From assembly GCF_003334815.1 (NCBI RefSeq), contig NZ_QOWO01000011.1: 64,000 bases of DNA. One strand, written 5' to 3'. Position numbers: made by a program. Every line of letters begins with the position of its first letter. The first letter of the stretch is position 1. This document shows, piece by piece, positions 33,001 to 36,000 of this stretch. This DNA comes from Escherichia coli. Its GTDB lineage: Bacteria > Pseudomonadota > Gammaproteobacteria > Enterobacterales > Enterobacteriaceae.

Positions 33001-36000
33001 TTCCGCGAAATGGCACCCGCCAAAGCGACCCGCGATATGTTCCTCGATGATCAGGGCAACCCGGACAGCAAAAAATCACTCACTTCGCATCTGGCTTCCG
33101 GCACACCGGGTACGGTAGCAGGTTTCTCGCTGGCGCTGGATAAATACGGCACCATGCCGCTGAACAAAGTCGTGCAGCCCGCGTTTAAACTGGCACGCGA
33201 TGGTTTTATCGTTAACGACGCGCTGGCTGACGATCTCAAAACCTACGGTAGCGAAGTGTTGCCGAATCACGAAAACAGTAAAGCTATCTTCTGGAAAGAG
33301 GGCGAGCCGCTGAAAAAGGGCGACACGCTGGTGCAGGCGAACCTGGCAAAGAGCCTGGAGATGATTGCTGAAAACGGCCCGGACGAATTCTATAAAGGCA
33401 CGATTGCGGAACAGATCGCCCAGGAGATGCAGAAAAACGGTGGCTTGATCACTAAAGAAGATTTAGCAGCCTATAAAGCGGTCGAACGCACTCCGATAAG
33501 CGGCGATTATCGCGGGTATCAGGTTTACTCCATGCCACCGCCATCCTCCGGCGGGATCCATATCGTACAAATCCTCAATATTCTGGAAAACTTCGATATG
33601 AAGAAATACGGCTTTGGCAGCGCCGATGCGATGCAAATCATGGCAGAAGCGGAGAAATACGCCTACGCCGACCGCTCGGAATATCTTGGCGACCCGGATT
33701 TTGTCAAAGTACCGTGGCAGGCGCTGACCAATAAAGCCTATGCCAAATCTATTGCCGATCAAATTGATATCAATAAAGCGAAGCCATCCAGCGAAATTCG
33801 CCCCGGCAAGCTTGCGCCTTATGAGAGTAATCAAACTACCCATTACTCAGTGGTGGATAAAGATGGTAACGCGGTGGCGGTGACCTATACGCTGAACACC
33901 ACCTTCGGTACGGGCATTGTCGCGGGCGAGAGCGGTATTCTGCTTAATAACCAGATGGATGATTTCTCCGCCAAACCGGGCGTACCGAACGTTTACGGGC
34001 TGGTGGGCGGTGATGCCAACGCCGTCGGGCCGAACAAACGCCCGCTGTCGTCGATGTCGCCGACCATTGTGGTGAAAGACGGTAAAACCTGGCTGGTTAC
34101 CGGTAGCCCAGGCGGTAGCCGGATCATCACTACAGTGCTGCAAATGGTGGTGAATAGCATCGATTATGGCTTGAACGTCGCCGAAGCGACCAATGCGCCG
34201 CGTTTCCACCATCAGTGGTTGCCGGACGAGCTGCGTGTCGAAAAAGGGTTTAGCCCGGATACGCTCAAGCTGCTGGAAGCAAAAGGTCAGAAAGTGGCGC
34301 TGAAAGAGGCGATGGGCAGTACACAAAGCATTATGGTTGGGCCGGACGGTGAGTTGTACGGCGCATCCGACCCGCGCTCGGTGGATGATTTAACGGCGGG
34401 GTACTAAGGTTAGCGGCCCTCTTCGTGGGAAGAGGGCTATTTTGTCAGGGCAAGCCGAAGGTAGCCTTTTTTATTTCGTAATCCTGTAGATATTCTTCCA
34501 GCGGTTTTGCCGTTCCCAGAGAATGAATTTCACCACTGTCTTTATCAATAATAAAAGGTGCGTTACCAGCTAAGCGCGCGGCCTCATCTCCAGTTTCGAG
34601 AAATTCTCGTGCTTCGAAACAGAAATACCAGCCCTGGCTAAAGCGTCCATGTAGAGTAATGACGACCGGGAGATCTGCATCATCAAGGTAATGGTTCGCT
34701 TTCGCGAATGCGTCGTGATAAGTAATCATAATTATAATAAATATTATTGTTGAGTGTTATATTATTATTCCTGTGTGATACATTGAGCAAAGACGCGTTC
34801 ATCTTCGTCAAAGATATTATTAAATGCTGGTTTTGAAAAAAGTTCATCGGATAAGATATAGTCACGAAATAAGTATCTGCTAATATTTTATGATTTCTTT
34901 TTCAGAACGTCGAACGGGATTTTCTTATTTAAGATATCAGAATCTTATGATTCGGGTAAAATTCTAAATAAATCAACATGTCATTAAAATCATCATAGCC
35001 ATTAGCTATTTCGGCTAAAATAGAGACTACATGTCTTCGGTCCATCTCACTTAAGGAGTGTAGTTCCGTTGTAAGTTTTTCCATAGCTTGCACTGCTAAA
35101 TTTCGAACAAGGAATTTTCTGCTGGTAATCTCTAAAAAGATGGCATGGTTTACAATGATTTTTGTTTCCTTTTGATTATTATGAACAACTGTCCATGATT
35201 TCGTTTAAGAATGAAGAGAAATCACTAAACGAACTGAATATATTTTCTGTGCCAATATTATCTCTAATTTCAAAAAAGTTACTTTTAATGTCATAAGTAA
35301 ATATTGAAATGCTATAATCCCCGATCACTAACCGTTCTTGTAGATCAGGGTTTATGAAATCATCATTATTTCTATAAAATTCATTTACGGCAAAAAGGTT
35401 TTTAACTGAAGGTTCTGGAATCGAGAGGCTAAATAATCGTAATCCATTAACTTCGAATCCATCCATTGCTCTTAAAAAAGTAAGATAATCAGGTTGATTC
35501 TTAAAAAGAATACTAACTTCATTACATAACTTCTCCAGGCAATTAGTTGAATTAGAATTAAATTCTATTTGGATTATACTTTCAATAAATGATTCCTTGA
35601 GCGGTGCTTCAAATGGATAGTCTAAATCATTCATCATTTTTATTAATTTATTTATTTGGGTTTTAGTCATCATTTTGTGTGGTCCATAATATTTTTCATG
35701 GGAGGATAAATTGAGCCAGATGGAATGGCCCAGGGAGTGATTTTGCTTTCACCTACTAATATTCCCTTAGCTATTCGTGATTGCATGTTAGTAAAAACTT
35801 TATGATATGGTTCGTTTTCGATTAATACTAAATTTTCGAAATCATTAGTACCACCATCATCTAGAGATAGTTTATGGTGAACATTATAATTTAGAGGAAC
35901 ATTGCCCTTTCTCATTCTTAAAAGGTCTTCGGCGTTGAATCTTCCAGATGCTTCGGAGGTTTTTGCAAGTTTGATAAGAAAATTTTTTCTTACAGTTTTA

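Follow-up and report, generated by a model that had tools for sequence, protein, structure and literature searches.

Probable remains of two immunity-type genes, one including yrhD, between yrhA and yrhB of Escherichia coli

The genes yrhA and yrhB of Escherichia coli are separated by a gap of 449 base pairs (bp), located at 34730-35178 of the 64,000-nucleotide (nt) stretch analysed here (contig NZ_QOWO01000011.1 of RefSeq assembly GCF_003334815.1; hereafter the window). The gap contains a 51-codon open reading frame (ORF) on the minus strand, which is annotated as yrhD. Our analysis makes it very likely that the gap represents the middle part, now eroded, of an array of immunity genes, comprising two pseudogenes that we term psi-A, which includes yrhD, and psi-B. 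Judged by homology, yrhD and its adjoining DNA are the decaying remains of two small immunity-type genes and hide no new gene. The ORF was already known as yrhD, and decayed or orphan immunity genes were already known from polymorphic-toxin and type VI secretion system (T6SS) loci. As far as the literature shows, three points appear to be new: yrhD can be assigned to a specific immunity-type family, its annotated start is recognised as an internal methionine of a start-less relic, and there is a second, unannotated relic, psi-B.

Two relics between yrhA and yrhB

The ORF occupies 34929-35084 on the minus strand (51 codons plus stop; ATG at 35084, TAA at 34929-34931) and its product is MEKLTTELHSLSEMDRRHVVSILAEIANGYDDFNDMLIYLEFYPNHKILIS (51 amino acids). 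A GTG at 35093, three codons upstream of the ATG, extends it to 54 amino acids in the ORF listing. The original prediction had described an AT-rich gap with a 51-amino-acid minus-strand ORF at this position, and the sequence is as described, with a guanine-plus-cytosine content of 30.7% in the gap compared with 52.7% in the whole window. It had also seen no ORF of at least 60 amino acids free of yrhB; the sole ORF of this length touching the gap (34683-34865, minus strand, GTG start) indeed overlaps the yrhB start. The ORF had further been called cryptic, a description that does not hold. Its coordinates are identical, base for base, to the RefSeq coding sequence yrhD ('protein YrhD', WP_001307436.1), and YrhD is found with 100% identity and the same coding-sequence coordinates in the records of strain A14 and K-12. 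The exact 51-residue sequence carries the name YRHD_ECOLI in a cluster look-up, and yrhD is annotated in thousands of E. coli genomes. The K-12 gene (b4612, P58037, WP_001307436.1) has the same sequence, coordinates and neighbours yrhB, yrhA and yhhZ. A pan-genome paper of 2012 lists YrhD as Swiss-Prot P58037 / EcoGene EG14370 and gives its function as unknown (PMC3575317). Where databases list an uncharacterised protein, our analysis points to the 3' part of a start-less relic, further pseudogenised in other lineages.

Direct searches returned E. coli sequences only. A word-indexed search of 5.8 billion clusters with YrhD found E. coli sequences, many of them truncated forms of 38-47 amino acids, and a HMMER pass over 1.84 billion representatives, with yrhD plus the downstream frame as a conceptual 108-residue fusion, likewise matched nothing outside E. 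coli. Sequence searches of Pfam, NCBIfam and PDB with YrhD gave no family or relative. On the spacer itself, Rfam yielded nothing at gathering score and a repeat search nothing relevant, and no paralogue was found elsewhere in the window. The database-wide searches stopped at E. coli because proteins this short and this diverged do not reach significance at that scale. When the spacer was compared only with the neighbourhoods of flanking-gene homologues, a search space about a million-fold smaller, its relatives surfaced among the neighbours of YrhA homologues in Citrobacter youngae and C. portucalensis. Both species have, at the chromosomal site that corresponds (yhhY ... ggt), Hcp-toxin genes followed by strings of genes of about 85 codons. 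Homologues of the spacer thus do exist, in two families, but they came to light by comparison of neighbours and not by direct database search.

The first relic, psi-A (34929-35180, minus strand), is homologous over its full length to an unnamed 84-residue family of Citrobacter and Salmonella (family A) but has no start codon. In a tblastn search, residues 8-66 of the C. portucalensis 84-residue protein matched window positions 35171-34995 with 39% identity (E 4e-13). Profile hidden Markov models (HMMs) of the families were built without E. coli rows; psi-A scored 54.6 bits, against a best score of 11.2 bits in the six frames of 2000 shuffled spacers (12,000 frames). In a ten-sequence alignment, the E. 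coli psi-A translation is 32% identical to the family and retains 14 of the 14 invariant family columns, including the AIFLE motif and Met37. The annotated yrhD ATG corresponds in this alignment to the invariant internal Met37, and yrhD is the C-terminal ~55% of psi-A. As predicted from the family model, a 51-residue YrhD would be without helix 1 and half of helix 2.

Upstream of yrhD, the psi-A frame is open from 35204 (the upstream stop lies at 35205-35207) and homology starts at about 35180-35171. Between this stop and 35093 there is no in-frame ATG, GTG or TTG. The position equivalent to the family's Met1 falls inside the last codons of yrhA, and the DNA homology of the E. coli yhhZ-yrhA module to the Citrobacter modules ends at 35190-35168. 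The junction behind yrhA has thus removed about six psi-A codons together with the start, and the 3' end of yrhA now stands in their place. Psi-A therefore resembles the 84-residue family in aligning over its full length, with the conserved residues, and in lying at the same chromosomal site by Imm35 and ggt. Unlike the family, it does not form an intact ~84-codon ORF that has a start codon, and it lies behind yrhA, not across the 3' terminus of a toxin gene. No trace of the cognate toxin domain was found, either at the E. coli locus or among the complete E. coli genomes, and none of these genomes has DNA of the toxin together with family A.

The second relic, psi-B (34768-34929, minus strand), lies in a frame different from that of yrhD, is unannotated, and corresponds to the N-terminal 54 codons of an 85-residue family beginning MKKIPLD. 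In Citrobacter, the gene of this family stands directly 3' of YrhA homologues. Residues 2-54 of the C. youngae protein matched window positions 34926-34768 in tblastn with 47% identity (E 5e-14), and two C. portucalensis paralogues gave E values of 1e-11 and 2e-6. The HMM score was 38.5 bits, against at most 7.8 bits in the six frames of the 2000 shuffled spacers. Significant homology is accordingly combined with the loss of a complete, full-length ORF with a start: psi-B has AAT at the position of the family's ATG, its last ~31 codons are absent, and a double stop at 34762-34767, 32 nt before yrhB, is present in every lineage. An additional CAA to TAA nonsense change at 34888-34890 is confined to the window clade. 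One base belongs both to the stop of yrhD and to the position of the psi-B start, an overlap that looks like a former coupled stop/start junction between the two genes.

A single ancestral gene of ~108 codons, split by a frameshift into yrhD and the downstream frame, was considered and rejected, since the two parts match two different families and the psi-B start abuts the yrhD stop. The immunity remnant raised as one option in the original prediction is thus borne out in the form of two separate relics, both scoring far above every shuffled spacer.

The source families and a proposed history

The immunity-type character of the 84-residue family is suggested by where its members are found. In five independent contexts, the gene (example clusters P0172/P0215) overlaps, over 4-17 nt, the stop of a larger gene upstream of it. 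The C-terminal ~125 residues of these larger genes (VKWVDENAGMS...FDGVDG..MIDRKISVVTT...IKNIEVKVVKE) are 66-81% identical to one another, and their N-termini differ, being Hcp in Citrobacter and Salmonella, an unrelated protein of 478 residues, and a protein of 242 residues that sits beside a ShlB/TpsB transporter and an Imm42 gene. The loci with the ~125-residue C-terminal domain, each followed by a member of the 84-residue family, are L038:1450-2117, L045:1369-2719, L047:2405-3752, L041:1523-3213 and L043:2286-3255 of our locus set. A common C-terminal domain on varied delivery domains, with a small conserved gene behind it, is the hallmark of polymorphic toxins and their immunity proteins. 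Because the 84-residue genes always stand at the 3' end of toxin genes that share one C-terminal domain, we infer that they are immunity-type genes. From sequence comparison, the ~125-residue domain and the 84-residue family may constitute an undescribed polymorphic toxin/immunity pair; the toxin domain has no relative in Pfam, NCBIfam or PDB. An AlphaFold model of the 84-residue family predicts a four-helix protein at low confidence (predicted local distance difference test, pLDDT, 67), for which Foldseek found no significant structural neighbours, only generic helical bundles.

In one Salmonella genome, Hcp-CT and family A form a complete pair in the stretch from yhhX to ggt. A second Salmonella genome (locus L046) has, in the same stretch, a toxin cut to its last 21 codons, and family A is intact as an orphan beside an Imm35 gene. 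The Citrobacter order is Hcp-toxin, YrhA, 85-residue gene, Imm35 and ggt, as in E. coli. Because of this synteny with Salmonella and Citrobacter, the E. coli order psi-A, psi-B, yrhB (Imm35) and ggt represents the local form of a conserved immunity islet. The Imm35 family (PF15567) to which YrhB belongs shares the array with the relics as the adjoining gene, and is unrelated in sequence to either psi-A or psi-B. A rich immunity array was seen beside ggt in C. portucalensis (JAKIHW010000013; L038:767-6120). It has two Hcp-toxin genes with different C-termini, and its small genes belong to at least four families: the 84-residue family A, an 85-residue MKKIP family (two copies), an 84-87-residue family, 'MITETELNVLKVM' (three copies), and Imm35, with a YrhA-like gene as well.

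A history consistent with these observations can be proposed. The array would be part of a horizontally acquired, AT-rich T6SS effector island (yhhZ-yrhA-...-yrhB) between yhhY and ggt. Psi-A would descend from an 84-residue immunity-type gene once paired with the ~125-residue C-terminal toxin domain (VKWVDENAGMS). In an E. coli ancestor, an Hcp-HNH/yrhA module would have displaced the corresponding Hcp toxin, probably via recombination across the conserved Hcp portion. This would have stranded the former immunity gene downstream as an orphan, with the junction taking its first ~6 codons and its start, and what is annotated as yrhD would be the stretch from the conserved internal methionine to the original stop. 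Psi-B would derive from the 85-residue gene that directly follows yrhA homologues, having lost its ATG and its last third. Both relics would since have drifted at an about neutral rate and collected differing nonsense mutations in separate E. coli lineages.

Orphan immunity genes and arrays that arise from effector displacement are familiar from T6SS, contact-dependent growth inhibition (CDI) and polymorphic-toxin loci, for example the auxiliary clusters of Vibrio cholerae. The E. coli locus resembles such arrays in its string of small immunity-type genes behind an effector, several of them without a cognate toxin, and in a conserved delivery domain (Hcp) whose C-terminal toxin and immunity modules are swapped between relatives. 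It differs from them in that two of its members are dead, one start-less and one truncated, with lineage-specific nonsense mutations, and are not kept as working defences.

Variation across E. coli and alternative explanations

The spacer is present in about 3800 of 5426 complete E. coli genomes, and we aligned the window with twelve loci from divergent E. coli lineages. Counted as unique substitution events, yrhD shows 2 synonymous and 15 nonsynonymous changes and 2 stop or start-loss changes. The corresponding numbers are 10, 12 and 0 for yrhA, and 15, 15 and 0 for yrhB. The pairwise ratio of nonsynonymous to synonymous polymorphism (pN/pS) is above 2 for yrhD, 0.27 for yrhA and 0.07-0.4 for yrhB, and yrhB is under purifying selection. 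The upstream part of psi-A has 4 synonymous and 10 nonsynonymous events. Per-site diversity in the spacer is 12-15%, the same as the synonymous-site diversity of the neighbours (11-25%). For the frame downstream of yrhD, a low pairwise pN/pS (~0.15) had at first suggested constraint; this signal was lost when unique events were counted (6 synonymous, 18 nonsynonymous, equal in every frame).

Inactivating alleles of yrhD arose separately in different lineages. Genomes of the Nissle/B2 type have TTA changed to TAA at codon 25, and most of them have also lost the start (ATG to ATA) and the upstream GTG. In a second group of lineages, codon 41 is changed from TAT to TAG, and one lineage of this group (L005) has frameshifts upstream of yrhD. 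Allele counts were obtained with an exact 79-nt haplotype probe. The window allele was matched exactly by 2740 genomes, the TAA allele by 371 (458 in its clade), and the TAG allele by 356 (491 in the identity band in which this allele type falls). The strain comparison is therefore divided, in that the ORF is intact in 2740 genomes but broken in roughly a quarter of the island carriers. The Prokaryotic Genome Annotation Pipeline (PGAP) calls the broken yrhD alleles pseudogenes, and yrhA and yrhB are intact in the same genomes. The invariance of yrhD had been noted earlier for 68 identical copies; because the whole 1.3-kb region is near-identical in the main clade, it is attributable to recent ancestry and not to selection. 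Unlike a gene maintained by purifying selection, yrhD shows no such constraint. The neutral substitution pattern and the recurrent nonsense alleles together indicate that neither relic is kept by selection.

Further variants of yrhD were seen. E. coli K_EC180 (L007) has a 9-bp tandem duplication (ATTTTAGCC) at yrhD codons ~25-27, which inserts Ile-Leu-Ala in frame on a TAG-stop allele. A 'divergent' YrhD in two Logan assemblies (P0013, P0015) differs only by changes of the C to T type on the coding strand (H to Y, S to F, A to V, P to L, and R to W with TGA read as Trp), and looks like an assembly of bisulfite-converted reads and no natural allele. For codon 41, parsimony over TAT, TAG and TGG had pointed to an ancestral stop; this idea was dropped, as the family column is Tyr or Phe, which makes TAT the more likely ancestral state.

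Among the alternatives to two relics, the one that survives best, improbable as we consider it, holds that yrhD is a genuine functional small protein of 51 (or 54) amino acids wherever it is intact, a cut-down immunity or regulatory peptide translated from the internal start. In its favour, yrhD is an annotated gene, about 2740 genomes carry its ORF intact and without variation, a further lineage (P0008) keeps an intact 51-residue ORF despite four amino-acid changes, and the family model predicts a helical structure for the peptide. A promoter has also been reported upstream: a consensus scan detects a promoter-like TAGAGA-18-TATATT at 35237-35266 (minus strand), inside the yrhA 3' end, and a genomic study by systematic evolution of ligands by exponential enrichment (SELEX) lists 'insB6 / HNS / yrhD TAGAGA-18-TATATT' as a constitutive sigma-70 promoter on the basis of in vitro binding (PMC3946193). 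However, no Shine-Dalgarno-like sequence precedes the ATG or the GTG, and the product would lack helix 1 and AIFLE, the most conserved motif of the family. Substitutions are nearly all nonsynonymous, two independent nonsense alleles and a start loss affect about 25% of carriers while the neighbours stay intact, and the invariance of the main clade is common to its whole 1.3-kb region. The small intact immunity protein entertained by the original prediction is therefore unlikely, as the family N-terminus, a start codon for it, and any sign of constraint are all missing.

Slightly less credible still is the idea that the window clade continues to express the longer psi-A frame by means of a non-canonical start, yielding an orphan immunity protein of ~73 residues against Citrobacter or Salmonella toxins. 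Orphan immunity genes are protective in other systems, and the frame is open from 35204 with all invariant family residues retained. A candidate AUC/AUU start exists at ~35157-35152, 7 nt after AAGGAA, and re-initiation after the yrhA stop is a second route; the AGGA motif with suitable spacing occurs in the window clade only, other lineages having AGGT. Yet E. coli very rarely initiates at AUC or AUU, and the upstream part evolves as neutrally as yrhD. It is disrupted by the frameshifts of lineage L005, and complete E. coli genomes are free of the cognate toxin.

That the frame is open merely by chance, in AT-rich intergenic DNA that never coded for protein, is very hard to sustain. Length by itself is within chance (P about 0.13-0.18): among 5000 Markov or shuffled versions of the spacer, 13-18% contain an ATG-initiated ORF of at least 51 codons, and 5-7.5% contain a stop-free run of at least 82 codons, the observed length. 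The direct searches, which found no homologue outside E. coli, would also agree with a chance frame. The strong homology to two intact families at the syntenic locus of sister genera, with the shuffled spacers scoring far below, refutes it, and so excludes the option that the original prediction had held to be equally open. Least probable of all is a decayed C-terminus of a toxin once neutralised by YrhB (Imm35), since the psi-B frame, which does end 32 nt before the yrhB start at the usual toxin-immunity spacing, and which recalls three distant loci where a toxin ending ...FQLLRTN directly precedes a YrhB homologue, is accounted for by the 85-residue family, and since the neighbours of 17 YrhB homologues, including the toxin C-termini upstream of them, matched no spacer frame at E below 0.4 in a search space of 541 nt.

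Several points weigh against two dead immunity genes, the explanation that we favour. The sigma-70 promoter found by SELEX makes transcription across yrhD plausible. The immunity role of the 84- and 85-residue families is drawn from gene context, and sequence searches of Pfam, NCBIfam and PDB with either family gave no relative. The displacement of the Hcp toxin is likewise inferred from synteny and not from a reconstructed event. The substitution events are few (19) and the sampled lineages are not independent. Moreover, the window clade (about 2740 of about 3800 genomes) keeps the whole 84-codon-equivalent frame open with every invariant residue, so that decay in this clade is limited to the missing N-terminus and start.

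The surrounding island and what the relics mean

The gene order in the window is ggt, yrhB, the 449-bp gap, yrhA, yhhZ/tssD, yhhY and yhhX. The chromosomal gene ggt ends at 34407 on the plus strand. On the minus strand, yrhB (34445-34729; RefSeq annotation) is intact and matches Pfam PF15567 (Imm35) at E 4.6e-23; by this match it is an orphan immunity gene of the Imm35 family, adjoining the relics on their downstream side. On the other side, yrhA (35179-35673, minus strand; RefSeq annotation) is intact, encodes 164 amino acids and matches NCBIfam NF038335 at E 1.7e-35. Both flanking genes had thus been named correctly from the sequence. YrhA is presumed to be the cognate immunity protein of YhhZ. 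The gene yhhZ ('tssD'; 35670-36848, minus strand) heads the island and matches Pfam T6SS_HCP at E 2.5e-11 and TIGR03344, with a weak HNH match; from these matches its product would be an Hcp tube protein extended at the C-terminus by an HNH-type toxin, an effector of the Hcp-ET type. YhhZ shares 70% identity with the C. youngae Hcp-371 protein of the same locus and 73% with the Hcp parts of the Citrobacter proteins. Repeated immunity genes accompanying Hcp-ET3/4 have been described (cited in PMC6730261).

The window stretch around yrhA is 100% identical to strains such as A14, and in K-12 MG1655 yrhA is split by an IS1 inserted at the equivalent of ~35285, so that the window must derive from a strain other than K-12. 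A sub-threshold Rfam match to snoR69Y, a plant small nucleolar RNA, inside yrhA (35283-35379, minus strand; 31.1 bits against a gathering score of 45) is taken as chance in AT-rich DNA. In E. coli K71-77 (L004; NZ_CP040886.1, 2645093-2645975), yrhB lies directly beside yhhY and yhhZ-yrhA-yrhD is absent, and O157:H7 genomes lack yrhB as well. As some genomes keep yrhB without yhhZ-yrhA-yrhD and O157:H7 is without yrhB, the Hcp-HNH module and yrhB appear to have separate presence/absence histories. A contig of 439 bp assigned to 'Tannerella forsythia ATCC 43037' (L020; NZ_JUET01000050.1) matches E. coli yrhB at 100% identity across 50 residues and is almost certainly E. coli contamination of the Tannerella assembly.

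The spacer may nevertheless matter to the expression of yrhB. A second promoter-like sequence, TCGACG-17-TAAAAT, was found by consensus scan at 34885-34913 (minus strand), within psi-B, and is a candidate for the promoter of yrhB. In K-12, a SELEX peak for RpoS is reported in the yrhD-yrhB interval, at a position not mapped exactly onto this site (PMC5493296). The island has been reported as H-NS-bound 'promoter island' DNA. No intrinsic terminator was found in a search between yrhA and yrhB. Taken from these in vitro and genome-wide promoter data, the spacer DNA probably serves passively as a transcribed spacer and as the promoter region of yrhB. At the yrhB start itself, no Shine-Dalgarno-like sequence is present at 34725-34760 (minus strand), and a TATAAT close to the -10 consensus, preceded at a distance of 18 nt by ATAACA, ends only 2 nt before the yrhB ATG.

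A more far-reaching outcome would combine a new toxin/immunity pair on Hcp or other carriers with a psi-A or 51-residue fragment that is still translated and residually protects commensal E. coli from Citrobacter or Salmonella, a combination to which we give little credence. Two eroded immunity-type genes, as we favour, would have small consequences beyond annotation hygiene and the evolution of T6SS islands, and would not surprise a specialist. They nevertheless give an origin to yrhD, a K-12 'y-gene' without function or family, as the tail of a dead orphan immunity gene, and yrhD is probably better annotated as a pseudogene than counted among the small proteins of E. coli. As a by-product of the analysis, Citrobacter and Salmonella appear to hold an uncharacterised toxin-domain/immunity family. 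For E. coli itself, the yrhA-yrhB gap would provide a base-by-base record of how a type VI effector island erodes after the displacement of a module.

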